NCBI GenBank assembly: GCA_021735655.1 | Contig: JAIPGM010000005.1 | Coordinates: 32,001-96,000, forward strand | DNA: 64,000 bases | Source: Candidatus Omnitrophota bacterium | Lineage (GTDB): Bacteria > Omnitrophota > Gorgyraeia > Duberdicusellales > 4484-171 | Direction of reading: 5' to 3' | Shown: one piece after another, positions 32,935 to 63,470 of the stretch | How positions within the stretch are numbered: position 1 is the stretch's first letter | Layout: every line of letters starts with the position of its first letter | Translations under genes and position numbers: made by a program | The notes under the pieces: generated by a model | Told to the model about the DNA's origin: nothing | Seen by the model: only the letters and a program-made list of their open reading frames with translations | Database searches by the model: none

Positions 32935-32965
32935 ATTTAATTTTTATCCTCTTTTGACCTCACTG

Positions 32966-42526: not shown

Positions 42527-43768
42527 TTATTTATGTTTTTTCGCTCTTTTGCTTTTGGATTTAAATCGCTCTGTTTCTTTTTCAATTATGCTCATCCAAT
42601 CGCTGTTCTGATTAACCGGATTAACAACTGTCGAATAATCCCCTTTACTAACTTCAATAACTCCTATCTCTTTATCTAAAAATGTCTGAATTTCATCAAG
42701 CAATTCTAATTCTTCTTTACTGCAAAAAGAAATAGCAACACCCTTATTGATCCCTCTGCCGGTACGCCCAACCCGATGGACATAATTTTCTGTTTTTATC
42801 GGTAGGTCATAATTAATAACATATTTAATATCGACAACATTAATTCCTCGAGCACTAATGTCGGTAGCGATCAAAATATTGCACTCGCCTGCTTTAAATT
42901 TTTTCATTACATCGGTGCGTTTATCCTGTTCTTTATCTCCATGAATAGATAAAGAACTTATCCCCACTCTCTCCATTGCTTTGGCTACCCGCTGAGCACG
43001 GACTTTTGTCCGAACAAAAACAATAATTTTACTCGCTGGATTATCCTTAATAAAACTCTCCAAGAAAAACCGCTTATCCTCCATTTCGACAAACATCACA
43101 TAATGAGTAACGTTCTTTGATACCGGATCTTTAGGTGAAATTTGGATACGTATTGCTGATCCCTTAACTTGAGAATAAGCTAATTTCTTAATCTTATCGC
43201 TTATGGTTGCTGAAAAGAAAAGAGTTTGATGGCGGCGCTTTAGCATTTTCTTAATATATTTGATATCTTCAATAAACCCTAATTCAAGCATATGATCAGC
43301 CTCATCAAGAACTAAAATTTCAATATGATCCAAATTAATATACTTCTGATTAATCAAATCAAACATTCGCCCGGGAGTTGCAATTAAAATGTCTATACCC
43401 TCCTGGAGTTTTTTAATTTGTTGATCCTGCTCAACCCCACCGCATAAAGCAAAAGTTTTGACTTTAGTGTGTTTGGACAACTGAATGAAAACTTCTCCGA
43501 TCTGCAACGCTAGCTCACGAGTAGGCGCCATAATAATACATTTAATTCCTCTTGACCTCTTACTCCTTTTATCAGAATGAATCCTATTGATAATCGGAAT
43601 AGCAAAGGCCGCTGTCTTACCAGTACCAGTTTGAGCAACAGCCAAAACGTCTTCTCCTTTAAGAATTGAAGGTATCGCCTTAAACTGAATATCTGTAGGC
43701 CGAACAAAGCCTAATCGAGCTAAGTTTCTTTTGATATCACTAGAAATATAATACTTTTCAAATTTCAT
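42527..43768 (-). CDS. DEAD-box ATP-dependent RNA helicase (RhlE-like)
   Basis: AQTGTGKT, DEAD, SAT and HRVGRTGRG motifs. 413 aa with a basic tail. Confidence 0.9.
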   Translation of the reverse strand: MKFEKYYISSDIKRNLARLGFVRPTDIQFKAIPSILKGEDVLAVAQTGTGKTAAFAIPIINRIHSDKRSKRSRGIKCIIMAPTRELALQIGEVFIQLSKHTKVKTFALCGGVEQDQQIKKLQEGIDILIATPGRMFDLINQKYINLDHIEILVLDEADHMLELGFIEDIKYIKKMLKRRHQTLFFSATISDKIKKLAYSQVKGSAIRIQISPKDPVSKNVTHYVMFVEMEDKRFFLESFIKDNPASKIIVFVRTKVRAQRVAKAMERVGISSLSIHGDKEQDKRTDVMKKFKAGECNILIATDISARGINVVDIKYVINYDLPIKTENYVHRVGRTGRGINKGVAISFCSKEELELLDEIQTFLDKEIGVIEVSKGDYSTVVNPVNQNSDWMSIIEKETERFKSKSKRAKKHK

Positions 43769-46900: not shown

Positions 46901-47059
46901 CCTACTGCCTACGGCTTTACCGGCTATGATGCAATGTTAGCTGAGATGATGCTGGCTCTTTGCTGGGGCTTGATCTTCGGAACCCTGATCACCTTAATTT
47001 TAGTTCCCTGTATGTATAGCCTAATTAAACAAATGCACTTTAGACTACAAAAAACATGA
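43922..47059 (+). CDS. RND-superfamily efflux permease (AcrB/AcrD/AcrF family)
   Basis: 1045 aa, 12 TM segments, two large periplasmic loops and an AcrB-like N-terminus. Confidence 0.85.
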   Translation: MRILEKTIAYFANRHLLTNLMFVVVFIGGVIAWNNTGKEELPDIEFDHAHVSARYPGATAEEVEHFLTKPLEEQIKGLDGVYRVNSTSSDGGTSISVDFEQNYPDLDEAVMELRNAVLDTDLPDDVTDEPEVNIWKTTKMAIIDLALIDTRKHLLDKPSRQRLQQYAYTLEQQLLNMPQVNSVEKSGYHQEEIKIMIKPDKLKQFDIPFNTVLREVKNNHIRQPAGNLEAKNEPKITLLSELDTAEKLNQLIIQGGFEGQVVRLKEVADIEYGFEKNNSISKVNGHEAITLRVVKNSSYGILEAIEAVKKQVKNFQNTSLQNTDIQLVSLDDESVDLKNRLSIVVTNGAIGFILILISLFFFLNFRSGLWVAMGIPFTLCFSMICVAMAGYTINNITLAAVIIVLGMIVDDAIVVSENISRLRLQGIPDEEAVVNGTAFVFLPVVASILTTCIAFVPLFFFQARFGKMLVFIPPIIFFMLGASLFESLFILPGHMHLKVPIFNQLVNRFKKNKSKPLKTNWFNKVEDMYGGILKRLLPFKWLIFIGFIGLLIFSGFIIKTKMKYVMFPDEETREIRISGEARLDADRYETAELTQKVEEMILSYLGKEVIGFRTQIARNRWGRAIQENKFQMRIEILPKEKRKKSADQLIKEWENKFSGISGLVNLKASKSRWGHSSGSPIEIIVQENNDQTRKKIVEKLVEAMKNHPGLENVEIDEPLENPEYKISLNREKIKRLSITPADVSSTLRAALEGTIAYELLKGDEEVNVRFTVIEAAKTDIEKILDIPIENAGNYLVPLRNIVEVNQTLTPNSIERKDSKRLTTIFADINSSSKLTPLEIAKQLEAKQLPEILSQYPTALINFEGEIKDTRESKGDFTGSIVMAVLLIYIVLVLLFNSLIKPLIIMLAIPFGIVGIVLAFWLHGKVLFGFFAAIGAIGLAGVVVNDSIIMLVKLEKSYDKSLNKDHYNQQIADIAKTRLRAVVLTTLTTVAGLLPTAYGFTGYDAMLAEMMLALCWGLIFGTLITLILVPCMYSLIKQMHFRLQKT

Positions 47060-49719: not shown

Positions 49720-50676
49720 TTACATTACCAATTGAAGCATATTGAATAAATATCCTGTAATAATTATCGCCACCGTTGTTATTCCAAAAAAGATTGTTAT
49801 TAACTGCAATTTCATTGCTCTCCTTAAGATTATCGCTTCCGGAAAACTCAAGGCAGCTGTTGCCATCATAAAAGCAAGCGCTGTCCCCAGAGGAACACCT
49901 TTTTTAAATAAAACCACCGCTATCGGCACAATTGCCGCACAACTCCCATACATTGGCACACCTAAAATAGCTGCGATAGGCACTGAAAATAGGCCTGTTT
50001 TACTTATTATTGTATGTATTGTTTCTTGGGGGATATAGTTATGGATAAAAGCACCTATACCTACGCCTAATAATACCCACATCCATAATTTTTTTGTAAT
50101 AGATTTGGCCTCATCTATTCCAAAAGCAAGCCTATCTCTTATCCCTTTGTAATCTACCTCTTTAATCACTTGTTTATCTTCTGAGACTAAGCCTTTAACA
50201 AGATATCTCTCTAAGTTCATCTTCCCCAGAATTACCCCTGAGAAAACACCTATTATAATTCCGCTTAATACATAAAAAAGAGTAATTTTCCATCCGAAAA
50301 AACCAAGCATTACTATTACCAAATACTCATTAATCAAGGGTGAAGTTATCAAAAAAGAAAACGTAGCCCCTAAGGGGATACCGGCTTCTAAAAAACTCAA
50401 AAAAATAGGTATAGATGAACATGAACAAAATGGAGTTATTGAACCAAAAAGCGAAGCAAAAAGATTACCGAGAACTTTCTTCTTACCAATCCAATTCTTA
50501 ATCTTATTCTGAGATATGTAAGTTCTAACAAAACCGATGGCTGCTATCATGAAAAACAACAGTAATAGTATTTTAATAGCGTCATACAAAAAGAAATTAG
50601 TTACTCCTGCCAATCTTGACTCCGGGGCCAAGCCAAAAACAGAATAAACTAACCAATCTATTATCGGCTGCAGCAT
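49720..50676 (-). CDS. DUF318 (PF03773) permease with TPFCSCS motif, ArsP-like
   Basis: 318 aa, 8 TM helices. [11 protein letters not shown] matches the signature of the ArsP/DUF318 permease family. Confidence 0.7.
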
Positions 50677-50801
50677 GATTTGCCCTTATCTTTATCCTTA
50701 CTCTCACAACAAGATTTTGTTTTTGCCTTTTTTTCCATCTTTTTATCTAACTTTTCCACTAACTTACAAAAAAAACCTTTCTTCTTTTTTGAATCACTCA
50801 T
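50661..50801 (-). CDS. Unannotated 46-aa Lys- and Cys-rich small protein ([46 protein letters not shown])
   Basis: Own translation; absent from the ORF track because it is shorter than 60 aa. The ATG overlaps the TGA of the DUF134 gene (ATGA). RBS AAGGAGG lies 5 nt upstream. The TAA stop overlaps the permease ATG region (ATGCTGCAGCCGATAA). It carries a C-x18-CC-x10-CC pattern. Confidence 0.45.
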
Positions 50802-51100
50802 TTCTTCCTCCTTGTAATTTTGCAACATCCACCCTCAATCTTTATTGCTTTTATATTTACCAATGCATCACCTATTTTACTATAGGCAGAAGCAATTATT
50901 CTTGAAAAGGTAGGCCGAGATATTTTTAGTTTCTTTGCTGCTGCTTCTTGCGTCAATCCTTCATAATCAGCCAATCTTACTGCCTCAAACTCATCTAAAG
51001 TCATGTGTACCCCGTCTAATTGATTAGATGACTTACACTGTGGCCTGAAACATCTTTCTCCTGGCTCACATTTAACCCATCTGGTCTTTTTCGGTCTCAT
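50798..51100 (-). CDS. DUF134 (UPF0251) family putative DNA-binding protein with sigma-70 region-4-like HTH
   Basis: MRPKKTRWVKCEPGERCFRPQC...LTLDEFEAVRLADYEGLTQEAAAKKLKISRPTFSRII matches the conserved DUF134 core. AGAGGT RBS. Preceded by a 30-bp perfect palindrome. Confidence 0.7.
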   Translation of the reverse strand: MRPKKTRWVKCEPGERCFRPQCKSSNQLDGVHMTLDEFEAVRLADYEGLTQEAAAKKLKISRPTFSRIIASAYSKIGDALVNIKAIKIEGGCCKITRRKK

Positions 51101-51110
51101 AGCTACCTCT

Positions 51111-51140
51111 TTATGTTATGAACATATGTTCATAACATAA
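51111..51140. promoter_or_regulatory. Perfect 30-bp palindrome TTATGTTATGAACAT|ATGTTCATAACATAA immediately upstream of the RBS of the DUF134 operon
   Basis: Verified as its own reverse complement. It ends 11 nt before the DUF134 ATG, adjacent to the AGAGGT RBS. Confidence 0.6.
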
Positions 51141-51161
51141 TATCAGCCAAAACCGCTCATG

Positions 51162-51199
51162 TCAAAAAAAATATCCCGAAGGAAAAATCTTCGGGATAT
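51162..51199 (-). terminator. Hairpin ATATCCCGAAG-gaaaaat-CTTCGGGATAT with T-tract (minus strand) after the MBL-rhodanese gene
   Basis: 11-bp perfect stem. On the minus strand it is followed by TTTTTTTT. Confidence 0.55.
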
Positions 51200-51309
51200 T
51201 AAAAAATAAATATAAGCTCTAATCCAAAACTATTAAAATTATTTACCGATTATTACCTCCCACAACCTGTAACCATGTTAGCTTAATTCTTCTAAATCTT
51301 TCACCTGAA

Positions 51310-52551
51310 TCATTGACTGATTGAACAAGTTCCACCGCCGATTTTCGACTTGTATATCTTTTTGTTATAAGGAAGCTTCATCAGCAACATTCCCATAAGG
51401 CAACTATTAGTTACCCCGGCAAAAATTAAAGCACAAGCAACCCATATTGAAATCCAAATAAAACCACTATGTAAAAAGTAAGCTAAAACTATCCCTAACA
51501 ACATCAAAATTCCAGCAACAACTCTCACTTGTCGCTCCAAAGACACCGAAGACTCCCCTTTGAGGACCGGAAATTTCTGCTTTTGCCAGGCAATTAAGCC
51601 TCCCTTCATTACTTTAACCGAAACAATGCCAGACTGCAATAACATATCAGCAGCCATCGGAGAACGGTTTCCGGTACGACAAAACACTATATACGATCGA
51701 TCAGTCTGACTTAAATCTTTTATTTTAGAATTCAACATATCTATTGGAATATTGATTGAATCCTTAATATGGGACTCATTAAACTCTAATGCTGAACGCA
51801 CATCTAAAAACTTCAAATTAGAGTCTTTAGAAGCATACTCTTTAGCTTCACCAGCTGAAACCATCTCTAAGGTCGTAGCTTCCCCTTTCTGATTAACCCT
51901 AATGATATTATCAATATTAAATGGTTTAGGAAGCTGCTTTGAACGAGCGTCGCTGACAAACTTATCTTTACTGATTTGGCGCATAAAAGGATTATTATTT
52001 TTTTCCTTGGCAATAGTAGATGAAACCTTCCCGTTGTAGTCGTGCGAAGGAAAAATAATAGTGTCTCCCGGAAAATTCTTAAACCTCTGTAAAGTTTCAA
52101 ACATTGCTTCCGGAGACCCATTTTGAAAATCGGTTCTCCCGACACTTCCGATCAGAAGAACGTCACCGGTAAATAATCGACCCTCTCCGTAAATAGCTAT
52201 GGTATCATCGGTGTGACCAGGAGCATATACAACCTTAAACTGCTTTGTTGCTAAAGCTATAGTATCCCCATCTTTAAGCTTTTGATCAACTACTTCGGAA
52301 ATTACTTTTTCGTGCATCAAAACAGGTACTTTAAGCAATTTCTTCAAATTTGCCGCTAAAGAAAAATGATCAGCATGAGTATGGGTATCGATTATATACT
52401 TTAAGTTTAGTTTCTTTTTTTTAAGATAATTGAGATAGTCTTCCTGAAGGCTTATATGTGGATCGATAACTAAGGCTTGATTTTGCGAGCCTAAAATATA
52501 AGAATAGCAACTTCCAGCAGTAAATTGTTTCATTGAAAAATCTTTATTCAT
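51310..52551 (-). CDS. MBL-fold hydrolase (persulfide-dioxygenase/ETHE1-like) fused to a rhodanese domain and a C-terminal two-TM anchor
   Basis: IIDTHTHADHFS metal-binding motif. Rhodanese active-site loop CRTGNRS. C-terminal hydrophobic YgaP-like segment. The architecture resembles CstB-type fusions. Confidence 0.75.
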   Translation of the reverse strand: MNKDFSMKQFTAGSCYSYILGSQNQALVIDPHISLQEDYLNYLKKKKLNLKYIIDTHTHADHFSLAANLKKLLKVPVLMHEKVISEVVDQKLKDGDTIALATKQFKVVYAPGHTDDTIAIYGEGRLFTGDVLLIGSVGRTDFQNGSPEAMFETLQRFKNFPGDTIIFPSHDYNGKVSSTIAKEKNNNPFMRQISKDKFVSDARSKQLPKPFNIDNIIRVNQKGEATTLEMVSAGEAKEYASKDSNLKFLDVRSALEFNESHIKDSINIPIDMLNSKIKDLSQTDRSYIVFCRTGNRSPMAADMLLQSGIVSVKVMKGGLIAWQKQKFPVLKGESSVSLERQVRVVAGILMLLGIVLAYFLHSGFIWISIWVACALIFAGVTNSCLMGMLLMKLPYNKKIYKSKIGGGTCSISQ

Positions 52552-53132: not shown

Positions 53133-53160
53133 TTGACCAACCCCTCCGCCTTGGTATAAT
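53133..53160 (+). promoter_or_regulatory. Near-consensus sigma-70-type promoter TTGACC-N16-TATAAT ending 8 nt before the crtI-like ATG
   Basis: -35 TTGACC at 53133..53138 and -10 TATAAT at 53155..53160. This implies a leaderless or near-leaderless transcript for the gene starting at 53169. Confidence 0.5.
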
Positions 53161-53168
53161 AATATCGA

Positions 53169-54572
53169 ATGAAAAACAAGATAGCTATTATTGGTGCCGG
53201 GGTTGGCGGCTTAGCTACAGCTGCCCGCTTAAGCTTTAAAGGCCACCCGGTAGAAGTCTATGAAAAACTTACCTGTTGTGGCGGCAGAGCCAATATCATA
53301 GAAGACAAAGGGTTTAAGTTTGATACCGGGCCTTCTTTTGTGATGATGCCTGACTTCTTTAAAGAAGTCTTTGACTACTGCCAAGAAGATATCAAAGCTT
53401 ATCTGGACTTAAAAGTCCTGGATAAAAATTATAAAATATTTTATCCTGACGGCGATTCGCTTACTATCCATAAAGACAATCAAAAAACCGAAGCTGAACT
53501 GGAAAGGATAGAACCGGGAAGCTCTAAAGGCTATAAAAACTTTATTGTTGAAACCGGTAAAATCTATAAAGCCGTAGTTCCTCTGCTCTATCGCTGTTTC
53601 CGGCCCCAGGATGCCTTTAATCCGGCTTACTGGAAACTGATCAACAAACTGCATCTGGGAAAATCTTACTGGCAACTGGCAAAAAAGTTCTTTAAATCCG
53701 ATAAACTCTGCTACGCTTTTACCTTTGAAGCTATGTTTATCGGCGTCTCCCCTTTTAAGACTCCGGCCTTTTACAGTGTGATCGGTTACACTGACCAAGT
53801 CGATAAAATCGCTCACCCCATAGGCGGAATGTACCAAATACCTAAAGCTTTAGAAAAAATGGCTTTGAAATTCGGAACAAAGTTTAACTACCAACGTGAA
53901 ATAACCTCGCTAGAAGAAATCAAGGCTGATAAATTTGTGATCAATGCCGACTATTCTTTTGCTCAAAGTAAACTACTGGGAAAAAAGATCCCTGATTACG
54001 ACTATTCCTGCTCAGTGCTCCTGTTCTACTGGGGAATGAAAAAGAAAATACCCAACCTCGAGCATCACAATCTTTTCTTTGCTCAAGACCTAAGAAATAA
54101 CCTGAAAAATATTTTCCAAAACGGTATTGTGGGCGATGATTTTTCTTTTTATATTCACGTTCCCACAGTCACTGACCCCTCACTGGCCCCTGAAGGAAAG
54201 GATATCCTCTATATTTTAGCTCCGGTGCCGAATCTTAAAACATTTAAAGGGGATTTCAAAATCTACGAAGATAGAATAAGAAAAAAAGTTATTGCTAAAA
54301 TTGAATCACTGTGCGGATTTAAAATTGAAGATTCAATTGAAACCGAACACAAGTTTTACCCCGAAGATTTTATAAAAAAATACAGTATACTCTACGGGGC
54401 TACTTTTGGCCTAGCTCACAGCTTAAAACAAAGTGCTTTTTTCAGACCGCCTAACTACACCTCTAAACAAAAAAACATTTATTTTGTAGGGGCCAGCACC
54501 CAGCCTGGGGGCGGACTACCTCCAGTTATTGCCTCATCACGAATAGTGGCTGATTTGATTACTAAGAGCTAA
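53169..54572 (+). CDS. Phytoene-desaturase-family FAD oxidoreductase (CrtI/CrtD-like)
   Basis: IAIIGAGVGGLATAARL dinucleotide motif. 467 aa with a CrtI-like C-terminal region. Confidence 0.75.
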   Translation: MKNKIAIIGAGVGGLATAARLSFKGHPVEVYEKLTCCGGRANIIEDKGFKFDTGPSFVMMPDFFKEVFDYCQEDIKAYLDLKVLDKNYKIFYPDGDSLTIHKDNQKTEAELERIEPGSSKGYKNFIVETGKIYKAVVPLLYRCFRPQDAFNPAYWKLINKLHLGKSYWQLAKKFFKSDKLCYAFTFEAMFIGVSPFKTPAFYSVIGYTDQVDKIAHPIGGMYQIPKALEKMALKFGTKFNYQREITSLEEIKADKFVINADYSFAQSKLLGKKIPDYDYSCSVLLFYWGMKKKIPNLEHHNLFFAQDLRNNLKNIFQNGIVGDDFSFYIHVPTVTDPSLAPEGKDILYILAPVPNLKTFKGDFKIYEDRIRKKVIAKIESLCGFKIEDSIETEHKFYPEDFIKKYSILYGATFGLAHSLKQSAFFRPPNYTSKQKNIYFVGASTQPGGGLPPVIASSRIVADLITKS

Positions 54573-55413
54573 CCCCGATCAAGGCCCTTATTTTCTCAAT
54601 TATTTTTTTGGTGACTTTATCAGGAGTAGAAGCTCCGGCGGTTATTCCGATTCTTTTAGCACCTTTAAACCATTCTTTTCTTAAGTCATTATCTGACTGA
54701 ACCCAATGGCTTTTCTTATTAACTGACCGTGATATTTCATATAGGCGCCGAGTATTAGCGCTGGTCTTTGAACCGATAATAACAACTACATCATTCTTAA
54801 GCGGCAAAATTCGAATCTCAGCCTGTTTTCTTCGGGTAGGAACACAGATGGTGTTAAAAAATTTTAAATCCTTAATCTGAACCCTTAAACTTTTAACTAT
54901 TTTTTTTACCTTCTCGCTATTTTGAGTTGACTGCACTACCATCCCGGCTTTTTTTATTTTTTTGAGTCGGGCTAAAGATAACTTATTGCTAATAATCAAA
55001 GGTTTACGCTTAAGGTTTCCCACAATGCCTTTAACTTCATGGTGATTCTCATCTCCGATAATAATTACCACTCTGCCTTCTTTTTCCAGGCCTTGAGCTA
55101 TTTTATGGATTTCTTTAACCATCGGACAAGTAGCATCAATCAGCTTATAACCTAAGCCTCTAGCCTGCTTCATGGTCTTGAGGCTGCTCCCGTGAGCCCT
55201 TATTAGCAAAACTTTACCTTTACCATTTTTTAATACTTTTACCTTTTTTATTCCTGAGGCGGCAATATCCCGGCAAACATCTTCGTTGTGAACAATATCA
55301 CCGAGCATCTCTACCAAAGGATAATCTCCGGCAGACTTTAAAGCAATGTCTATTGCTCTTTTTACACCAAAACAAAATCCGGCTGATTTAGCTAGATTGA
55401 TTTTAGGTTTCAT
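54562..55413 (-). CDS. ispH: 4-hydroxy-3-methylbut-2-enyl diphosphate reductase
   Basis: AGFCFGVKRAI N-terminus and conserved Cys ligands (C13, C96-like, C195-like positions). 283 aa. Confidence 0.85.
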   Translation of the reverse strand: MKPKINLAKSAGFCFGVKRAIDIALKSAGDYPLVEMLGDIVHNEDVCRDIAASGIKKVKVLKNGKGKVLLIRAHGSSLKTMKQARGLGYKLIDATCPMVKEIHKIAQGLEKEGRVVIIIGDENHHEVKGIVGNLKRKPLIISNKLSLARLKKIKKAGMVVQSTQNSEKVKKIVKSLRVQIKDLKFFNTICVPTRRKQAEIRILPLKNDVVVIIGSKTSANTRRLYEISRSVNKKSHWVQSDNDLRKEWFKGAKRIGITAGASTPDKVTKKIIEKIRALIGVSS

Positions 55414-56273
55414 CGGTATTTTCCTTCAATAATTACCTTGGCTAAGAGCCCCAATTTACCTAAGCGGCTCACCGAAGCCCGCTGGAAAAACAAATCGTAA
55501 TTATTCTTTTCAATCTGATCAAGGATCGCCCCATATACCTTGCTCATCGCACAAACTACAAATCTGGAGCGCTTATCGGTTATCATCTTAATCCCTTCAT
55601 CAGCCAATTGATAGTAATTTCTGGCCCGCCGAATCTGATATTTAATAAAAGTGATAAACTTATCGCTAATTTTTTCTGAACTCAAATCCTCCTGGCTCAA
55701 GCCAAAACTTTTTAGTTCATCCTGAGGTAGGTATATTCTGCCTAAGCCTAAATCCTCTTTGACATCGCGCAGGATATTGGTAAGCTGCATGGCAATACCC
55801 AGATCAACTGCCGGCTGTTTTGCCTTATTGTCCCGATAACCAAAAACCTCAAGCATGATCAAACCCACCACTCCGGCAACTTTATAGCAATAATCGTATA
55901 GCTGCTTGAAATCAGCATAACTTTTCTTTTCCAAATCTAAATGCATACCTTTTATCAATTGATCAAAATAGTTCTTGGGTATATTATATTTATCTACTGT
56001 CTGCTTAAAAGCTAAAAGCAAAGCTTCCCGGGAGCAATCCAAGCCATACGCAGAATTTATCTTTTCTTCAATCCGGCTTAATTTTTTTAAGCCGCCGTTT
56101 GCGTTATCTACGCTGTCGTCGCTTATCCGACAAATGGCATATATACTGTAAGCGGCACGCCTTTTCTCTAAACCTAGAAATTTCGAGGCAAAATAGAAGG
56201 TTTTGGCGTGTTTTTTAGTCAGCTTTTCAGCCTCTTTAAATCCTTGATCAATGACTTTACCCATTGAAACCAT
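55410..56273 (-). CDS. Phytoene/squalene synthase family (CrtB/HpnD-like)
   Basis: Head-to-head prenyl synthase motifs (YAICRISDDSVD and the second Asp-rich region). 4-nt overlap with ispH. Confidence 0.8.
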   Translation of the reverse strand: MVSMGKVIDQGFKEAEKLTKKHAKTFYFASKFLGLEKRRAAYSIYAICRISDDSVDNANGGLKKLSRIEEKINSAYGLDCSREALLLAFKQTVDKYNIPKNYFDQLIKGMHLDLEKKSYADFKQLYDYCYKVAGVVGLIMLEVFGYRDNKAKQPAVDLGIAMQLTNILRDVKEDLGLGRIYLPQDELKSFGLSQEDLSSEKISDKFITFIKYQIRRARNYYQLADEGIKMITDKRSRFVVCAMSKVYGAILDQIEKNNYDLFFQRASVSRLGKLGLLAKVIIEGKYR

Positions 56274-56348
56274 TTTATATTACCGACCCCAAAAAGCCAA
56301 CAAGAATTTACCTTGCTAAATCCTAGATTGCTAACTAAAATATATCTG

Positions 56349-56657
56349 ATGTCAGATTATTTAAAGGTTTTAATCCTTTCAGTTCTGGTTCCTTTTGCCT
56401 GCAGCTTCTACCGGCCACTGAGGTTTTATGAAAATCTAAAAGCCTTGCTTGTTAGTGTAGGCTTAGTGGTCCTGATTTTTGGAGCCTGGGACATCTTAGC
56501 TACAGCCCGCGGCCACTGGCATTTCAATCCTCAAGGAGTAGGATCGCTAAAAATAATTAACTTACCCCTAGAAGAAGTATTATTCTTTATAGTTATTCCT
56601 TTTTGCTGTATTTTTACCTGGGAAGCAATAAACTATATTAAAAATAAAATCCAATGA
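56349..56657 (+). CDS. Lycopene cyclase domain protein (heterodimeric CrtYc/CrtYe-like subunit)
   Basis: About 100 aa with three TM helices and the PLEE(V/F)LFF motif. Start moved to the first ATG, because the ORF-track start is a TTG. Confidence 0.6.
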   Translation: MSDYLKVLILSVLVPFACSFYRPLRFYENLKALLVSVGLVVLIFGAWDILATARGHWHFNPQGVGSLKIINLPLEEVLFFIVIPFCCIFTWEAINYIKNKIQ

Positions 56658-56941
56658 AAGAATATACTCTCTTAGCTATAAGTTCGGTGGTTTTAACTAT
56701 TATCTGGAATAATTTAAGCGGAGTAAAGCTGTTTAAAAAGAAAATTTTTTATTTATTTCTTTTTATAATCTTTCTGTTTAAACTCCTAGTCAATGGAGCC
56801 CTAACTAAAACTATTGTTTTATATAATCCCGATTTCTTTTTGGGCTTAAGACTGGGCACCATCCCCCTGGAAGACTTTCTTTTTGGCTTTAGCATGGTCA
56901 CTCTCTCTATAATATTCTGGGAACAGTTTAAAAAGCAATGA
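56654..56941 (+). CDS. Lycopene cyclase domain protein (CrtYd/CrtYf-like subunit)
   Basis: 95 aa, TM helices, the PLEDFLFGFSMV motif. 4-nt overlap with the preceding subunit gene. Confidence 0.6.
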   Translation: MKEYTLLAISSVVLTIIWNNLSGVKLFKKKIFYLFLFIIFLFKLLVNGALTKTIVLYNPDFFLGLRLGTIPLEDFLFGFSMVTLSIIFWEQFKKQ

Positions 56942-57798
56942 AAAAAATATTTTTTATTCTTATTCTTTTAATATTCTTCTCCCTGCCATTGTTTGCTTTG
57001 GACTGGATAAATCTCCACCAACAGGCCTCGACTCAAACTCTGAGTAAAAATCCTCAATCTGAAAACGAACTATACATCCAGGGATTGGTTTATCTAAACG
57101 AACATAAAGACAATGAAGCTAAAGAGGTCTTCGACAAGCTTATTTCCCAAAACAACAACCTCTTTGAAGCCCGCTGGGGCCTAGCTGAAGTCTTGCGGCG
57201 TAAAAAAGCCTTAAAACAAAGCCAGGAAATACTTGATCAAATAATCCAAACTAATCCCGGTTTCTCACCGGCCTACATAACTCTTGCCTATATAAAGTAT
57301 ACCCAAACTAAATTCAATGAAGCCGCAAAACTGGCTTTAAAAGTCATAAAACAAGGCCCTGAGGCATCCGATATTGATAACTTTAGCCGGGCTTACCTTA
57401 TTTTTGCCGGCTCCAAAGGCTTAATCGCTTCAAAGGGCGGACCGCTCTCAAAACTGATAAATGGAACTCAGGTATTACCGAACTTAAAACGGGCTGAAAA
57501 GCTACGGCCGGACGCTCCGGAAGTCTTATTTGGCCTAGGCAACTTTTATTTCTTGGCCCCTGGTATTGCCGGCGGTAATCTGGACAAAGCCCAAGACTAT
57601 TTGAAACGCTGTCTTAAAAAAGATCCCTCGTTTGCCGATGCCTATGTAAGGCTGGCTCAAGTATATAAAGCCAAAAACAATGCCGAACAGTATGAGCTCT
57701 ATCTTAAAAAAGCAAAAGCCATTGATCCGCTTAACGAACTGCTCAACGATGAGCTCTCGGGAGAATGTAAGTTTAATTGCCAGACAGTAGAAGAATAA
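56938..57798 (+). CDS. Secreted TPR-like repeat protein
   Basis: Signal peptide MKKIFFILILLIFFSLPLFA followed by TPR-like helices. Confidence 0.55.
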   Translation: MKKIFFILILLIFFSLPLFALDWINLHQQASTQTLSKNPQSENELYIQGLVYLNEHKDNEAKEVFDKLISQNNNLFEARWGLAEVLRRKKALKQSQEILDQIIQTNPGFSPAYITLAYIKYTQTKFNEAAKLALKVIKQGPEASDIDNFSRAYLIFAGSKGLIASKGGPLSKLINGTQVLPNLKRAEKLRPDAPEVLFGLGNFYFLAPGIAGGNLDKAQDYLKRCLKKDPSFADAYVRLAQVYKAKNNAEQYELYLKKAKAIDPLNELLNDELSGECKFNCQTVEE

Positions 57799-57808
57799 AC
57801 CCGGTGGT

Positions 57809-58849
57809 TTAAGACTTTAGCAGTTTTTCCGGATATTTAATTAAAAAATCCTTATAGTTGCCGCTGATCGAAGACGAGTTTATCAAAGCTTGTGATCTTT
57901 TAACCAAAGAATTAATTTCTCTCTCAGCATAATCCAAGGCTCCGGATTCAGTAATAATCCGACGCACCTTTACCAAATCGTTTTGGCTTACCTTACTTTT
58001 AGCCAATAATCTTTTTATCGACATCCTAACAGCTTTGCTGCTATTCTGATAAGCTTGCCAGATAAGCAGGGTCTTTTTTGACTCCTGTAGATCAGAAAGG
58101 GTTGATTTACCGATTTTCTGCTCATCGCCAAACATACCTAAAATGTCATCTCGTATCTGAAAAGCCCTTCCCAAAAATATTCCAAACTTAAATAGTTTAT
58201 CGATTTCTTTTTTAGGGGCTCCGGCTAATATCGCACCGCTAGCTAAAGGCGTAGAAAAAGTATAACAAGCAGTCTTATAATCATATATCCGATAAATATT
58301 GTCTTTAGTTATCTTTTCAATCGAATCTATTCCACCCAAAAGCTCAATAAACTCTCCTGAACCAGTGTAGATAGCCGCCTCGATAAATTTTTTTAAAGCC
58401 TTTTCCTTGCGTTCCGGGTCCTCTCTTATCGCCAGAAAAGCTTTTATAGCAATAGCATACATTACATCACCGATAACTATACTTAAATCTTGACCGCTAA
58501 ATTTAACCTTCTTATAGTTTTTTAAATATTTATCCAATAATTTATGCATTGAAGGCTTACCACGACGAGTATCAGACTTATCAATTATATCGTCATGGAC
58601 AAGCATGAAATCATGCATCAGCTCTATAGCCAAAGCACTGCGGTATAATCCGGCAGGTAATTTCTTACTAAATCCCGAATAGCCGACCACAAAAAGTATC
58701 GGCCTGATCCGTTTTCCTTTACGCAGGATAAAATCTTTGATTGATTTAAACAGCAGCGGTGAGATTTTGCTCAAAGAATAGGTTTTATCTATATCGGTAG
58801 CGAACTTTTTAAGCTCAAGCTCAACTTTCTTTTTTATTTTATCAGGCAT
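57809..58849 (-). CDS. Polyprenyl diphosphate synthase (trans-IPPS family, GGPP/FPP synthase-like)
   Basis: First Asp-rich motif LVHDDIIDKSDTRRG and second Asp-rich motif FQIRDDILGMFGD. Confidence 0.8.
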   Translation of the reverse strand: MPDKIKKKVELELKKFATDIDKTYSLSKISPLLFKSIKDFILRKGKRIRPILFVVGYSGFSKKLPAGLYRSALAIELMHDFMLVHDDIIDKSDTRRGKPSMHKLLDKYLKNYKKVKFSGQDLSIVIGDVMYAIAIKAFLAIREDPERKEKALKKFIEAAIYTGSGEFIELLGGIDSIEKITKDNIYRIYDYKTACYTFSTPLASGAILAGAPKKEIDKLFKFGIFLGRAFQIRDDILGMFGDEQKIGKSTLSDLQESKKTLLIWQAYQNSSKAVRMSIKRLLAKSKVSQNDLVKVRRIITESGALDYAEREINSLVKRSQALINSSSISGNYKDFLIKYPEKLLKS

Positions 58850-58871
58850 TTATTTATGCTACCATATAAAC

Positions 58872-59768
58872 ATGGGCAGTTCAAATATTAAAAACTATAC
58901 AAGAGCCTTAAGGCTTCCCTTTGTCACTGCTAGCCTATTTCCTTTTATTTTCGGATCATTATTGAGCTTCTCCTCCTGGCTAAACTTTATTCTCGGCTTA
59001 ACTTGCGCTATCGCCACTCACCTAGGAGCCAATCTAATCAATGACTATGCCGACTCAAAATCCGGAGCTGACTGGCAAGATACAAAGTTTTACCGCTTTT
59101 TCGGCGGCTCTAAATTAATTCAGGAAGGAGTCTTTTCGGAAAAGTTTTACCTAAAAAATGCGATTTTTGCTTTTTTACTGGCCTTAGCCTGTGTTCTGAT
59201 TCTAGCAGCACGATTTAAAAATTTATCAGTGTTAGGTTATTATTTATTTATCTTGTTTTTGGGCTTTTCCTATTCCCATAAACCGCTTAAATTTTCTTAC
59301 CACCGCCTCGGTGAATTGATTATTTTTCTTCTTTTCGGACCGGCTCTGGTCATGGGTGCTTTATTTATCCAAACCCAACATTTTCCTACCTTGCAAGGTT
59401 TTCTGCTTTCAATACCCTTAGGAATATTTACCACGGCGATTCTTTTTGCCAATGAAATACCTGATTATCTAGATGACCGAAAAGCTAATAAATTTACTTT
59501 AGTCAGCTTGTTCGGACCGAAAAAATCATATATATTTTATTATCTTCTCTTGCTCGTGGGCTTTTCCTCAATAATTATTAATGTTATCCTAGGCTATCTG
59601 GACTGGCCGGCGCTTTTGGCTCTTGCCTTAGCCTTACTTGGTTATAAAGCCGGCAAAATATTAAAAGAAAACTACGCCGACAAAACAAAACTAATAAATT
59701 CGGCTAAAATGACCATAGCTTTACATAGCCTGGTAAGTATAATTTTAATTTTAAGTCTGATCTTATGA
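58872..59768 (+). CDS. UbiA-family prenyltransferase (lycopene-elongase- or MenA-like)
   Basis: NDYADSKSGAD and DYLDDRKAN Asp-rich motifs. About 8-9 TM helices. Confidence 0.75.
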   Translation: MGSSNIKNYTRALRLPFVTASLFPFIFGSLLSFSSWLNFILGLTCAIATHLGANLINDYADSKSGADWQDTKFYRFFGGSKLIQEGVFSEKFYLKNAIFAFLLALACVLILAARFKNLSVLGYYLFILFLGFSYSHKPLKFSYHRLGELIIFLLFGPALVMGALFIQTQHFPTLQGFLLSIPLGIFTTAILFANEIPDYLDDRKANKFTLVSLFGPKKSYIFYYLLLLVGFSSIIINVILGYLDWPALLALALALLGYKAGKILKENYADKTKLINSAKMTIALHSLVSIILILSLIL

Positions 59769-60832
59769 AAAAAATTGTTATTGTCGGTGGTGGCTTTGCC
59801 GGAATTTCAGCCGTAAAAACCCTGGCTAAATCTAAACTGGAATTAGTTCTTATCGATAAAAAGCAAAGTTGGGATTTTCTACCCTGCCTTCCCGATATCC
59901 TCAGCCAAAAAATAAATCCTGTATTTCTTACCGTAAATTTAGCTGATTTTATTAAAAAACTTGGCGGTAAATTTATCAATCAAGAAGTAAAATCGGTAGA
60001 TTTGGCTCAAAAGAATCTTAAGCTAGATTCTCAAGACCTAAGCTATGACTATCTGCTTCTTTGTAGCGGAACTAAAACTAATTTTTTCGGTAACTCGGAG
60101 ATGAAAAGACAGGCACTAAAACTAGACTCAATAGCAGACGCCGAGCTTATCCTTAGCCGCCTAGAAAAAGATGACTTTGATAAAATAGTCGTTATCGGTG
60201 GTGGTTATACCGGAATTGAAATTGCCACTAACCTGCGACAGCGTCAGGCTAAACCGATCAGCATTATCGAAAAATCACCCAACCTGCTCGGTACTCTGCC
60301 TCAATGGATGAAAGATTACGTTAAAGCTAATCTTGATAGATTAAATATTGAAGTCCTGGCTTCTTCTGAAATCAGCCAGATTCCCAAAAGAACTTTGCTG
60401 ATCTGGTCAGCCGGAGTAAAATCAGACGACTACATCTTTAACTTAAAACAAAACAAAACTCCCCAGGGAAGATTAAAGGTGGATAAATACTTAAAAATAA
60501 CCGACAACTGCTTTGTGGCCGGCGACATAGCTAACTTTGATTATCGCAGCCGGCCCTTAAGAATGTCTATACAATTTGCTATTACTCAAGGCAGACTAGC
60601 TGCAAGAAATATCATAAACAGCATCAAAGGCAAACCTCTAACCGAATACAAACCTAAGGATTTAGGCTATGTTATACCCATGCCCAACAACAAATCCTGC
60701 GGTTTAGTCTTGGGCTTGAGAGTAAAAAGCCGCTTAGCCACTTTTCTCCACTATTTTATGTGTATTTTTCGCTCGGAAAGTTTTAAAAATAAGCTGGGAA
60801 TAATTAAAAATCTTATAAAAGGAGGTGCCTGA
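59765..60832 (+). CDS. NAD(P)/FAD-dependent oxidoreductase (type II NADH dehydrogenase / SQR-like fold)
   Basis: Two GxGxxG motifs (IVGGGFAGISA and VIGGGYTGIEIA). 4-nt overlap with the UbiA gene. Confidence 0.7.
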   Translation: MKKIVIVGGGFAGISAVKTLAKSKLELVLIDKKQSWDFLPCLPDILSQKINPVFLTVNLADFIKKLGGKFINQEVKSVDLAQKNLKLDSQDLSYDYLLLCSGTKTNFFGNSEMKRQALKLDSIADAELILSRLEKDDFDKIVVIGGGYTGIEIATNLRQRQAKPISIIEKSPNLLGTLPQWMKDYVKANLDRLNIEVLASSEISQIPKRTLLIWSAGVKSDDYIFNLKQNKTPQGRLKVDKYLKITDNCFVAGDIANFDYRSRPLRMSIQFAITQGRLAARNIINSIKGKPLTEYKPKDLGYVIPMPNNKSCGLVLGLRVKSRLATFLHYFMCIFRSESFKNKLGIIKNLIKGGA

Positions 60833-61245
60833 TGAAAAGCTATGCGACTCTGCCTCTGCGCCTGGCTCTTGGAGCAGTGTTTATTTTTCACGGCCTACAA
60901 AAAGCCTTTGGGCTATTTGGCGGACCAGGAATAAAAGGTTTCTCAGGAATGCTTGCTGGACTAGGCTTTCCTTTTTCGGAAATCATGGCAATTCTAGTTG
61001 CCTACGTTGAGCTAATCGCCGGAATCCTTTTAGTTTTGGGGGTTCTAACAAGAATCTCTTCTCTATCACTTTTAATAATTATGATAGTTGCCCTGCTTAA
61101 AGTCCATCTAGCTAAAGGTTTTTCGATTATGAACGGTGGTTATGAATATGATCTGGTTCTAATTTTGATTTGTCTTTCGCTAATCATCTCCGGAGGCGGA
61201 AAATTAAGTTTAGGCCAAAAACTAAATAAATTAAAAAATCTTTAA
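60832..61245 (+). CDS. DoxX-family membrane protein
   Basis: LRLALGAVFIFHGLQKAFGLFGG N-terminus typical of DoxX. Four TM helices. The start overlaps the upstream stop. Confidence 0.7.
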   Translation: MKSYATLPLRLALGAVFIFHGLQKAFGLFGGPGIKGFSGMLAGLGFPFSEIMAILVAYVELIAGILLVLGVLTRISSLSLLIIMIVALLKVHLAKGFSIMNGGYEYDLVLILICLSLIISGGGKLSLGQKLNKLKNL

Positions 61246-61262
61246 AATAAAGTTACAATAAG

Positions 61263-61592
61263 TTAAATCTTACAGCCACAATTTTTTCTTTTTAATATCT
61301 TTACCTGCTCTTTATAGGAATCTATAAATATACACTGCTTTTTTGAGCCGGTAGCTAATTTTCTATCAAGGTCGCTCTTATGCCTATATCCTCTATTGGC
61401 CATCTCCGCAACAAGTTTATTGTGCCGCAAATATAACGAAGCCAATTTACACTTCCATCTAAGCGTCTCCGGATGCCGAGAGTATCCTTTTTTATTCTTA
61501 GTTAGAATAGACCAAATAGCATGTAATTCCCTATGCTCACCTAGAAGATGATTGCGACAAAGTTTTTTTGGAGGTATATCCCAAATTCTCAT
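61263..61592 (-). CDS. Pyrimidine-dimer DNA glycosylase (T4 endonuclease V / DenV family)
   Basis: 109 aa. The N-terminal motif DIPPKKLCRNHLLGEHRELHAIW parallels the T4 endoV LADQHLMAEYREL region. Confidence 0.55.
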   Translation of the reverse strand: MRIWDIPPKKLCRNHLLGEHRELHAIWSILTKNKKGYSRHPETLRWKCKLASLYLRHNKLVAEMANRGYRHKSDLDRKLATGSKKQCIFIDSYKEQVKILKRKNCGCKI

Positions 61593-61721: not shown

Positions 61722-63470
61722 TTAAAAACTAACTTTGTAAGTAACCGATCCGCCAAGTTCGTAAAAGTCTTCTTTAAGCTGAGTTTCTAAATCAACCAAA
61801 AGAGTGGTATTTTTCTTGTTGAAGAATTCAAAACGGGAACCGACATTAAAGCTTGAGGGTGCCGGTCGGTAGCCTGAAGTTTCAAAAGAAGCCCCACCGC
61901 CCTCAAAACTGGCTAAAGACTGCTGTTTTTCATTCACCACACTGTAGAAATAACGAAAACGAAGCTCGGGAGTGAACAGCATCTTCTCGCTCTCAAAAAC
62001 CTTACTCAACCTAAGACCTCCGCCCAGCTGTAAAGTTTGGTAATTCTGAGACTCAACGCTGAGATTCAGCGCTCCGGCTCCAGTCTCAGTATAATCATCG
62101 AGCTCGAGATTAGTGTAGCTTAAAGCTAAAAGCGGAATGATCTCGAAATTCTTCTTTTTCAACTTATAGCCGCCTTCCAGGTAAGCTGAGAGCTGCTGGC
62201 CATCGTAATCAGCATTAGCCGTCCTTTCGATAGAACCGACAGTTACCTTTCTCGAATTATTATATTCACTGTAGCCGTAAGTCAGCACTGCATCAAACAG
62301 ATAAGGCTTATCCGGATGGCTATATTCTCCGTAAAGGCCGGTCTGATAACTTGTTATCCGAGTGCGCTCTTCGTTATCTTTTGACCTGATCTTACCTTCG
62401 CTAAACCCTTGGTCTATACCCAAGCGTAAAGAATTATTCAAAAACCCGTGGTCAAAGCCGATAACATTACCCCAAAGCTTAGCCCGGTAACCCTTACTTG
62501 CACCACGCTCACCCTGCCGGGCATAGCCACCATAAGACTGAAACCAGATATCGTTATTAAAAGAATCCTCTAATGAGTCTTCCTCAAGGCTATCTTCCTC
62601 GATCTTTGAATCTTGTAAACGCAATACCGTGGTCCTGACAAATTTATCCAGGGAACCGTTTGAGGTATTGATTACTCCCCTGTTAGCAGAAAGGCCCATG
62701 TCGTTCTCGGCCGAAGCTACGCCACCACCAGATAAAGCTTCGAGAGTATTAAGAATCGTGGTCATGTCCGAAGAAGGATTGCTTATATTATCGAGAACCC
62801 GACCGACAGCAGCTGAATTAGAGCTGGAAGCCTGGCTTTCAAACCCAGAGGTTGACCGGTCAGCAGTTAAAACCAAGTTGCCTCCGGAATTTGACGCGCT
62901 AAATGACACCCGAGAGTTACTTGAGGTAACTGTAGTCGGAGCATTCCCTATTCCTGAACCATTAGTATCGATAATAGTAAAGGTTGCATTTGACGGTATA
63001 TAGATATCATTGCTAACTGTAACCGCCACTGTACTTGCTGTATTTACCACTGCTGCGGCACCAGAAGTTATCCTGCCTGAGGTTGAAGGCGTATCAACGG
63101 TCAGGTTAAGGGTAGTCCCTGATCCTTGAGTATAAATGCCGGTACCGCCAAGAGTAAGAGTATTGGCTCCCAAGCCCAAACTGCCGGCATTATCTAAAGT
63201 AAGGTTTCCGGTAATTGTGCGGCTGCCAGTAAGATTTAAAGTTCCGCCGTCTCCTGCCGAATCTACAGTAGTAGTTACGGCCGCCAGGTTATGCCCTAGA
63301 AAAAGTGTACCCTCCCCGGGCAGACGTCTGACTGCGGCTCGATTCGCTATGAATTCCGCATAGAAGTCACCAGACCCAGCAAAAATCACGCCAGAATACG
63401 CCTGATTCCGACGGATTCCGAGGATCCGAAACAAAGCCCTGCCTTTGCCCTTGAAGCTCAAGGGTGCCAA
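61722..63470 (-). CDS. Autotransporter (passenger with Gly/Thr/Ser-rich beta-helix repeats plus C-terminal beta-barrel translocator); apparently missing its signal peptide
   Basis: C-terminal roughly 280 aa is a typical autotransporter beta-domain ending ...YKVSF. The ORF begins at a TTG directly after an in-frame stop with no signal peptide. GC is about 45 % versus about 37 % for neighbouring genes. Confidence 0.7.
   Translation of the reverse strand: MAPLSFKGKGRALFRILGIRRNQAYSGVIFAGSGDFYAEFIANRAAVRRLPGEGTLFLGHNLAAVTTTVDSAGDGGTLNLTGSRTITGNLTLDNAGSLGLGANTLTLGGTGIYTQGSGTTLNLTVDTPSTSGRITSGAAAVVNTASTVAVTVSNDIYIPSNATFTIIDTNGSGIGNAPTTVTSSNSRVSFSASNSGGNLVLTADRSTSGFESQASSSNSAAVGRVLDNISNPSSDMTTILNTLEALSGGGVASAENDMGLSANRGVINTSNGSLDKFVRTTVLRLQDSKIEEDSLEEDSLEDSFNNDIWFQSYGGYARQGERGASKGYRAKLWGNVIGFDHGFLNNSLRLGIDQGFSEGKIRSKDNEERTRITSYQTGLYGEYSHPDKPYLFDAVLTYGYSEYNNSRKVTVGSIERTANADYDGQQLSAYLEGGYKLKKKNFEIIPLLALSYTNLELDDYTETGAGALNLSVESQNYQTLQLGGGLRLSKVFESEKMLFTPELRFRYFYSVVNEKQQSLASFEGGGASFETSGYRPAPSSFNVGSRFEFFNKKNTTLLVDLETQLKEDFYELGGSVTYKVSF

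Follow-up and report, generated by a model that had tools for sequence, protein, structure and literature searches.

What does an isoprenoid gene cluster make when it combines carotenoid-type genes with a UbiA-family prenyltransferase in an uncultivated bacterium? Such a cluster lies at positions 53133 to 61245 of the 64,000-nucleotide stretch analyzed here (the window; contig JAIPGM010000005.1 of the Candidatus Omnitrophota assembly GCA_021735655.1, positions 32,001 to 96,000 of the forward strand), and an earlier reading of the letters alone, hereafter the original prediction, had proposed that it encodes a C50-type or otherwise elongated carotenoid pathway. Every gene named there is present in its place by open reading frame (ORF) map, Pfam and NCBIfam, and is joined by three that were not listed: a secreted TPR-repeat protein, a gene resembling NDH-2 (NADH dehydrogenase of type 2), and a DoxX-family gene. 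We consider it probable that this is a composite isoprenoid-lipid locus, in which two functionally separable modules draw on one shared supply of prenyl diphosphates. The likeliest products are a cyclic C40 carotene and, apart from it, a C20-prenylated naphthoquinone-like lipid. The analysis shows to which families the genes belong, in which clade the UbiA protein falls, how often the genes are linked and how well their motifs are kept; from these we deduce chain lengths, quinone head group, salvage, ring type of the product and any coupling of CrtI to quinones. No description of carotenoid clusters or of the UbiA module in Omnitrophota was found in the literature searched.

The UbiA-family prenyltransferase is encoded at 58872..59768 on the forward strand (PF01040, 99 bits). 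Of its eleven NCBIfam matches at E<=0.01, the best ten are all to models of the MenA type, and the eleventh is to an unnamed prenyltransferase model (NF009523). The best score was to NF004751 (118.9 bits) and the second-best to TIGR02235 (104 bits), the phytyl-transferring MenA of cyanobacteria and plants; at the same threshold there was no match to the lycopene-elongase-type models NF009516, NF010119 and NF009608. The positive control for elongases, a LyeJ-like protein from the haloarchaeal crtD-prenyltransferase(lyeJ)-cruF-crtB cluster of a Halocatena plasmid (NZ_CP096020.1), scored 426 bits with NF009516, above its cutoff, and 133 and 109 bits with NF010119 and NF009608, both below cutoff. 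It matched no MenA-named model and shared with the window protein only the unnamed prenyltransferase models NF004617 and NF009523. A profile built from 20 Omnitrophota UbiA sequences gave 70-108 bits with the four MenA references, from Priestia, Arthrobacter, Natrinema and E. coli, as against 9.9 bits with the LyeJ-like protein, 2.8 with E. coli UbiA and -4.6 with E. coli CyoE. The sole PDB relative of this profile is UBIAD1 (E=1.7e-20), all plasmid tblastn matches are annotated MenA, and NDYADSKSGAD, the first of the two Asp-rich motifs, is spaced in the manner specific to MenA (NDYxDxxxGxD). By every measure used, the nearest relatives are MenA and eukaryotic UBIAD1; with bona fide MenA the protein shares 26-31% identity. 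On these sequence comparisons we class the protein as a divergent member of the MenA/UBIAD1 clade, neither an elongase of the CrtEb/LyeJ type nor, by curated cutoffs, a bona fide MenA. The comparison with elongases, MenA and UbiA that the original prediction had proposed as a check thus places the enzyme with MenA, and the elongase role does not stand. A "prenyltransferase" in NCBI, from a metagenome-assembled genome of Candidatus Omnitrophica, matches the window protein at 100% identity; the window protein's 120 best homologues are 55-77% identical, and all of those with a named source are from Omnitrophota.

Inheritance of the UbiA gene is also independent of that of the carotenoid genes. 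With one genome scanned for each GTDB species, 177 UbiA relatives were returned, of which 80 loci (cited below by L numbers) were fetched with a reach of +/-10 kb; ten window proteins were scored against these by tblastn, and all neighboring ORFs were clustered. The prenyl diphosphate synthase (PPS) was found in 71 loci, the NDH-2-like gene in 69 (55 of the 60 loci that extend 3 kb or more downstream), DoxX in 47, the TPR gene in 46, ispH in 30, crtB in 19, crtI in 15 and the cyclases in 12-13. Combinations of carotenoid genes were tallied within the fetched neighborhoods of those 45 loci in which the sequence upstream of UbiA spans 7.2 kb or more. Eight of the 45 carry crtI, crtB and both cyclases, ordered as in the window. 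Reduced forms comprise crtI and crtB without cyclases (one locus, L054), ispH-crtB only (four: L014, L019, L061, L062) and a CrtI-family ORF only (one, L029), and about 31 of the 45 keep UbiA with no carotenoid gene within 7-10 kb upstream. Together, placement in the MenA clade and this independent inheritance largely refute the C50 reading. The reduced modules include intact crtB genes with neither desaturase nor cyclase within 7-10 kb. In the crtB-only loci, ORFs that lie upstream of ispH and are 464-477 aa long had been suspected to be divergent CrtI; they proved unrelated, as blastp matched them to none of the query proteins.

The position of ispH is explained by the same comparison. The original prediction regarded this gene as inserted into a carotenoid cluster, and the relationship is better read in reverse. 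In several carotenoid-free loci (e.g. L002/L003, L026, L050, L067) ispH directly adjoins PPS; the conserved unit is therefore (ispH-)PPS / UbiA-NDH2-DoxX, and the carotenoid genes are a variable insert, lying between ispH and PPS in a subset of genomes. In the window, ispH, encoding 4-hydroxy-3-methylbut-2-enyl diphosphate reductase (54562..55413, reverse strand; TIGR00216, 251.6 bits, cutoff 187.9), shares 4 nt with crtB and is part of the same transcript. Between the UbiA gene and the cyclases lie the TPR and PPS genes. The TPR gene (56938..57798, forward strand; Pfam TPR families), whose product begins with a hydrophobic signal-like segment, overlaps the second cyclase gene by 4 nt; it is convergent with PPS and is kept beside it in related loci (46 of the 80 have the gene), also where carotenoid genes are absent. 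Where the carotenoid module occurs, its gene order is constant in about 14 loci, and carotenoid-positive loci are scattered over a UbiA similarity tree. This combination of scatter and constant order suggests an old arrangement with repeated losses. No compositional sign of recent transfer was found in the region, the GC content of the carotenoid/UbiA genes (0.365-0.387) being the same as in the rest of the window (about 0.35-0.40). Together with an autotransporter beta-domain, OEP and AcrB encoded in the window, this bears out the description of the host, a Candidatus Omnitrophota bacterium, as a low-GC diderm.

Several PPS/UbiA-NDH2-DoxX loci, at 50-59% identity, bear other taxon labels: Planctomycetales or Planctomycetia (L007, L032, L034, L054, L056, L058, L069, L073, L080), Paceibacterota (L013), Auribacterota (L025) and Margulisiibacteriota (L049). 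These are likely to be label or binning differences rather than true spread. Recurrent additional neighbors in the 80 loci are limited to CbiMNQO, a response regulator and an M48 peptidase. The CbiMNQO-type energy-coupling factor cobalt/nickel transporter often lies 3' of UbiA-NDH2-DoxX (e.g. L061 12426-15000, L014, L062) and is absent from this window.

The first module, a core conserved across Omnitrophota, consists of an archaeal-type synthase of the short-chain class (geranylgeranyl or farnesyl diphosphate, GGPP or FPP), divergent from a UbiA-flavoprotein-DoxX operon and often accompanied by ispH and the TPR gene. The PPS of the window (57809..58849, reverse strand; PF00348, 181 bits) has as its best NCBIfam matches short-chain synthases (IdsA and GGPP synthase, including bifunctional FPP/GGPP enzymes), all below cutoff. 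Its FARM motif, DDIID, has no insertion, and the Phe at position -5 is invariant in 71/71 orthologues. In (E)-prenyl synthases a Phe at -5 of DDxxD denotes a short-chain product, and by this rule the enzyme is expected to make GGPP or FPP. UbiA would then prenylate a head group of the naphthoquinone type with a short chain, probably C20, a pairing with a C20-type PPS that recalls UBIAD1, which uses GGPP in making menaquinone-4 (MK-4), and the phytyl-transferring MenA of cyanobacteria and plants. The flavoprotein (59765..60832, forward strand; PF07992, 122 bits), which overlaps the UbiA gene by ATGA, is of the NAD(P)H:quinone oxidoreductase type; its nearest PDB entries are NDH-2 (4nwz, 9.8e-24), AIFM2/FSP1 (6.5e-23) and Staphylococcus aureus NDH-2 (1e-18). 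It is a two-dinucleotide-fold protein of the NDH-2/AIF family, judging by these matches, with a predicted role as a quinone reductase. The DoxX-family small membrane protein (60832..61245, forward strand; PF07681, 74.8 bits, with weaker DoxD matches) belongs to a family whose members are annotated as quinone-associated, and its characterized relatives, DoxD/TQO, are quinone-linked membrane proteins. Both genes are translationally coupled to the UbiA gene as one unit, and their products may reduce or use the resulting membrane quinone.

The head group may be salvaged from elsewhere, as genes of the Men and futalosine pathways are apparently missing: neither these nor MenG/UbiE were found in the window or within +/-10 kb in the 80 loci, and neighbor clustering over the same reach gave no recurrent MenG/UbiE, UbiD/X or Mqn genes. 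According to Seymour et al. (2023), menaquinone pathways are confined to some Velamenicoccia. Among the KEGG Orthology (KO) entries listed there for two Omnitrophota genomes are K02548 (menA) and K02291 (crtB), with K15977 (DoxX) in one, and no menB/C/D/F, ubiE or mqnA/C/D/E is among them (PMC10066038). The supplement of a 2026 paper on quinone distribution has no entries for Omnitrophota. A precedent is found in Streptococcus agalactiae, where ndh and menA share one operon, the other men genes are absent, and demethylmenaquinone is made from exogenous 1,4-dihydroxy-2-naphthoate (DHNA) (PMC6030563). The likeness lies in a MenA-type prenyltransferase placed in an operon with a type-2 NADH dehydrogenase while the head-group pathway is apparently missing; unlike the streptococcal operon, the Omnitrophota locus has DoxX and a TPR protein and no cydAB, a short-chain prenyl donor is predicted for it instead of a C50 one, and salvage would here be deduced from the genes present. 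We infer a module for quinone prenylation and reduction that is possibly fed by salvage, with chain length and head group as predicted above. Going further, we tentatively suggest that in at least 177 Omnitrophota species the module might turn a scavenged naphthoquinone into a short-chain, MK-4-like membrane quinone of host-dependent nanobacteria, or, in view of the altered second motif and the insertion described below, make an undescribed prenylated redox lipid, either of which could serve CrtI as an anaerobic electron sink where the carotenoid genes are present.

The second module, a patchily distributed accessory, is of the carotenoid type, as the original prediction had held: a CrtI-family desaturase, a CrtB/CrtM-like synthase and a pair of cyclase-domain proteins adjoin the short-chain PPS. 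The crtI gene (53169..54572, forward strand) encodes an FAD-dependent carotene desaturase of the CrtI/CrtN family (TIGR02734, 398.7 bits against a cutoff of 238), whose nearest solved structure is Pantoea CrtI (4dgk, E=4.8e-63). The crtB-like gene (55410..56273, reverse strand; PF00494, 260 bits) encodes a head-to-head prenyl synthase, probably a phytoene synthase. The annotated synthase and desaturase references used for comparison were collected from plasmids and form a small panel. Against them the Omnitrophota synthase profile scored 229 bits with Deinococcus CrtB, 200 with Staphylococcus CrtM, 165-187 with the CrtB of Thermus, Pantoea and Halocatena, 133 with HpnD (two real proteins) and 64 with HpnC; the plasmid matches of the synthase rank likewise (CrtB/CrtM 125-159 bits, HpnD 97-111 bits). 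At the position equivalent to F26 of CrtM, Ser is present in 20/20 Omnitrophota synthases, and the CrtB references have S/S/S/T, CrtM Phe and HpnD Met. This residue in CrtM is a steric limit that holds the product at C30; with the substitutions F26A/S/L the enzyme makes C40 phytoene (PMC13304436).

Two small overlapping genes complete the module. The first, cycA (56349..56657, forward strand, with an alternative start at 56313), encodes a CrtYc-like lycopene-cyclase-domain subunit of 102 aa with about three transmembrane segments and an LPLEE motif; the second, cycB (56654..56941, forward strand), overlaps it by 4 nt and encodes a CrtYd-like subunit of 95 aa with an IPLED motif. The hidden Markov model TIGR03462, which the original prediction had suggested running, returned both above its cutoff of 39.4 (67.5 and 40.6 bits). 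PxEE is present in 12/12 orthologues of subunit A and PxED in 13/13 of subunit B, each subunit has about three hydrophobic segments, and the cyclase genes co-occur with crtB and crtI in every locus with a long enough contig. The pair is of the heterodimer type; NCBIfam has no model that separates C50 from C40 cyclases. A plasmid tblastn of subunit B, aimed at reference CrtYc/Yd or CrtYe/Yf genes, gave no match, and an exhaustive HMMER search with subunit A gave three close representatives, followed by metagenomic proteins without taxonomy that are unnamed or called lycopene (beta-)cyclase or lycopene cyclase domain-containing protein.

Heterodimeric-cyclase clusters for C40 carotenoids have the arrangement crtE-crtB-crtI-crtYc-crtYd, as in Brevibacterium linens and Mycobacterium. 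The Omnitrophota module shares with them a predicted short-chain PPS, a probable synthase of the CrtB type whose F26 position is taken by a small residue, a desaturase of the CrtI family and a pair of overlapping genes, each about 100 codons long and encoding a lycopene-cyclase domain with PxE(E/D). It differs in its host, a member of an uncultivated and largely anaerobic phylum of the PVC group, and in its layout, in which three short transcription units run divergently or convergently and ispH and a TPR gene are interleaved; its desaturase stands nearer to CrtN than to proteobacterial CrtI in the small panel, and hydroxylase, ketolase and glycosyltransferase genes are absent. The locus would thus resemble in its working a CrtE/CrtB/CrtI/CrtYc-Yd C40 cluster set beside a quinone operon of the menA-ndh type. 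CrtB would join two molecules of GGPP to phytoene, CrtI would convert phytoene to lycopene or neurosporene, and the CrtYc/CrtYd-like heterodimer would cyclize the psi-ends to a beta- or gamma-carotene-type C40 pigment, with ispH and PPS feeding both this branch and the quinone branch. Electrons from CrtI may pass to oxygen or to the adjacent quinone pool. CrtI can use quinones without oxygen (PMC3382138), and the neighboring quinone module could therefore suit an anaerobe functionally, a convenience that we offer as speculation.

Several points weigh against dividing the locus into a quinone module and a C40 carotenoid module. The window UbiA falls under all MenA equivalog cutoffs (NF004751, 118.9 against 264 bits; TIGR02235, 104 against 225; TIGR00751, 83.1 against 102.15), which the MenA proteins of E. 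coli and Priestia pass. Its second Asp-rich motif is altered, with NE[IV]PDxxxD (NEIPDxxxD in the window; NEIPDYLDDRKANKFTL) standing for the NNxRDxxxDxxxGKxTL of MenA, and motif 1 is followed by a conserved, subfamily-specific insertion, FGGSKLIQE (D67 W68 ... F77 G78 G79 S80 K81 I83 Q84), so that the acceptor may not be DHNA. For the head group, the KO table of the two Omnitrophota genomes possibly covers single-copy KOs only, and its negatives apply among the entries listed. Genomes without carotenoid genes at the UbiA locus could carry them elsewhere. Furthermore, divergent lineages share the gene order of the full cluster; the two modules have therefore truly been linked for a long time, which could point to a functional tie between them. 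In the same small panel the desaturase profile ranks Staphylococcus equorum CrtN first (389 bits), ahead of haloarchaeal CrtD (328), Pantoea CrtI (296) and HpnE (37), and PPS may also make FPP, which would allow a C30 product. In such a 4,4'-diapocarotenoid pathway the synthase would be a CrtM-like dehydrosqualene synthase acting on FPP and the desaturase a CrtN, in keeping with the best plasmid matches of the desaturase, which are staphylococcal C30 operons, with the CrtM-type structures nearest to the synthase, with the bifunctional FPP/GGPP enzymes among the best PPS matches, and with the report of CrtN in the related phyla Planctomycetes and Verrucomicrobia (PMC9907078). We nevertheless think this pathway unlikely. 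The Ser at the F26 position agrees with CrtB and is one of the substitutions that convert CrtM to C40 synthesis (PMC13304436), a CrtN-like branch has been reported to work in C40 synthesis (PMC9907078), and the structural matches are biased toward CrtM as the PDB holds no CrtB or CrtN structure. Deinococcus CrtB is the top synthase reference, and crtP, aldH, crtQ and crtO are not among the nearby genes by ORF map and Pfam. Lycopene-cyclase-domain proteins, moreover, are known for C40 and C50 substrates. By profile the desaturase is a CrtI-family enzyme that stands nearest to CrtN in this panel, scores that are compatible with a C30 or a C40 substrate.

The C50 reading, in which UbiA would be a lycopene elongase adding C5 units to lycopene and the small cyclases would be of the CrtYe/Yf type, draws on the resemblance of the locus to known gene sets. 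The C50 cluster of Corynebacterium is crtE-crtB-crtI-crtYe-crtYf-crtEb, and with it, as with the haloarchaeal crtD-lyeJ-cruF clusters, the locus shares a Pfam inventory of polyprenyl_synt, SQS_PSY, Amino_oxidase, two Lycopene_cyc and UbiA; ispH would provide dimethylallyl diphosphate, the order of the cluster is constant over the roughly 14 divergent loci, and motif 2 of UbiA contains IPD as does that of the LyeJ-like protein. Unlike in those clusters, however, UbiA here belongs to the MenA/UBIAD1 clade, lies apart from the cyclases, is translationally coupled to the NDH-2-like gene and persists in the about 31 of 45 loci that show no carotenoid gene within 7-10 kb; all three elongase-type models matched by the control are missed, and the profile and PDB comparisons agree. 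With the elongase subfamily absent and UbiA not co-inherited with the lycopene-forming and cyclase genes, we rejected this pathway as highly improbable. A reading of the synthase as HpnD, with an HpnE-like flavoprotein, in squalene or hopanoid synthesis has in its favor that the best single NCBIfam model of the synthase is HpnD (227 bits), a score that does not reach its cutoff, 278.6, and is practically level with that of cyanobacterial CrtB (220 bits, itself below a cutoff of 550). The profile scores and the Met of HpnD at the F26-equivalent position set the synthase apart from HpnD, contrary to the outcome that the original prediction had named as speaking against CrtB; there is one SQS_PSY gene only, with no second to serve as HpnC, the desaturase reaches just 35-37 bits with HpnE, and squalene-hopene cyclase was not found in this or the related loci. 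The HpnCDE set being incomplete, we rejected this reading too and regard it as scarcely credible. The linkage of both modules in constant order over deep divergence would also be expected of a single integrated pathway, in which the cyclase pair cyclizes the terminal isoprene of the MenA-like product to an omega-cyclic prenylquinone or meroterpenoid, or in which the modules are obligately coupled. In chemical terms, a carotene's psi-end and the omega-end of a polyprenyl chain are equivalent, and the enzymes for omega-cyclic menaquinone are stated to be unknown (PMC13386864). The cyclases, on the other hand, go with crtB and crtI wherever the contig is long enough to tell and are absent from most UbiA-module loci, which is the pattern of a carotenoid cyclase and not of a quinone-tail cyclase, and we hold an integrated pathway to be very unlikely.

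The original prediction also described a leaderless, near-consensus promoter before crtI. For the window this is a fair description: a sigma-70-like promoter, TTGACC-16-(TGg)TATAAT, occupies 53133..53160 on the forward strand, the ATG follows 8 nt downstream, there is no Shine-Dalgarno (SD) sequence, and a leaderless crtI transcript is predicted from this layout. In other species the promoter is missing upstream of crtI, and some of them have SD-like sequences there. Similar layouts precede other genes of the cluster. At crtB, TTGGCT-17-TAAAAT stands 7 nt before a second ATG, at 56264, which is likely the true start, with no SD; at cycA, a promoter-like TTGCTA-17-TAAAAT at 56313-56341 lies 7 nt before the ATG at 56349, again with no SD. 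A TAnnnT -10 hexamer ending 6-8 nt before an ATG without SD was seen at several genes that lead operons, namely 27339-28931(-), 42527-43768(-), 43922-47059(+) and 55410-56264(-), and at 56349(+) and 53169(+). As three of these are otherwise unrelated genes of the window, the lack of a leader may be widespread among first genes of this organism and no peculiarity of crtI, and the shared geometry suggests that leaderless mRNAs are common here. The divergent start codons of PPS and UbiA are 22 bp apart (58850-58871), so that their promoters must overlap each other or sit within the neighboring coding sequences.

A C40-type cluster in another uncultivated phylum extends the known range of heterodimeric lycopene cyclases and removes a wrong C50 annotation. 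It is of mild interest that pigment genes are kept, or lost again and again, in a mostly anaerobic, ultra-small lineage that depends in part on hosts, with a gene for an ultraviolet (UV)-dimer glycosylase adjoining. The apparently orphan MenA-like/NDH-2/DoxX module of Omnitrophota is the more interesting lead. If it does serve quinone salvage or make a new redox lipid, this would bear on respiration in nanobacteria and on their dependence on partners, and the automatic annotations "prenyltransferase" and "1,4-dihydroxy-2-naphthoate octaprenyltransferase" would need correcting.

Among the other features of the window, which gave no matches in Rfam and tRNA scans, a pyrimidine-dimer DNA glycosylase gene (UV repair) lies just past DoxX at 61263-61592 on the reverse strand. 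The gene recurs by the UbiA module in other loci (L002/L003/L016 12437-12766, L009, L012, L084 3544-3885), and the same kind of glycosylase adjoins the haloarchaeal crtD-lyeJ-cruF cluster; such a neighbor may hint at exposure to light or UV. Beyond it, an autotransporter gene (61722-63470, reverse strand) has a GC content of 0.465 compared with about 0.37 elsewhere, which may reflect either the composition of a repeat-rich passenger or foreign DNA. Upstream of crtI, at 49720-52551 on the reverse strand, lie a DUF134 regulator, an ArsP-type permease and a fusion of a metallo-beta-lactamase-fold hydrolase, a rhodanese and a YgaP-like membrane domain; the fusion resembles a persulfide dioxygenase/sulfurtransferase, and in other loci the cluster is not accompanied by this set. 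Farther away on the same strand are two tandem GH130 (mannoside phosphorylase) genes with long N-terminal extensions (31018-34819) and a 1175-aa Cache-HAMP-PAS-histidine kinase with a C-terminal GGDEF-like domain (9412-12939).

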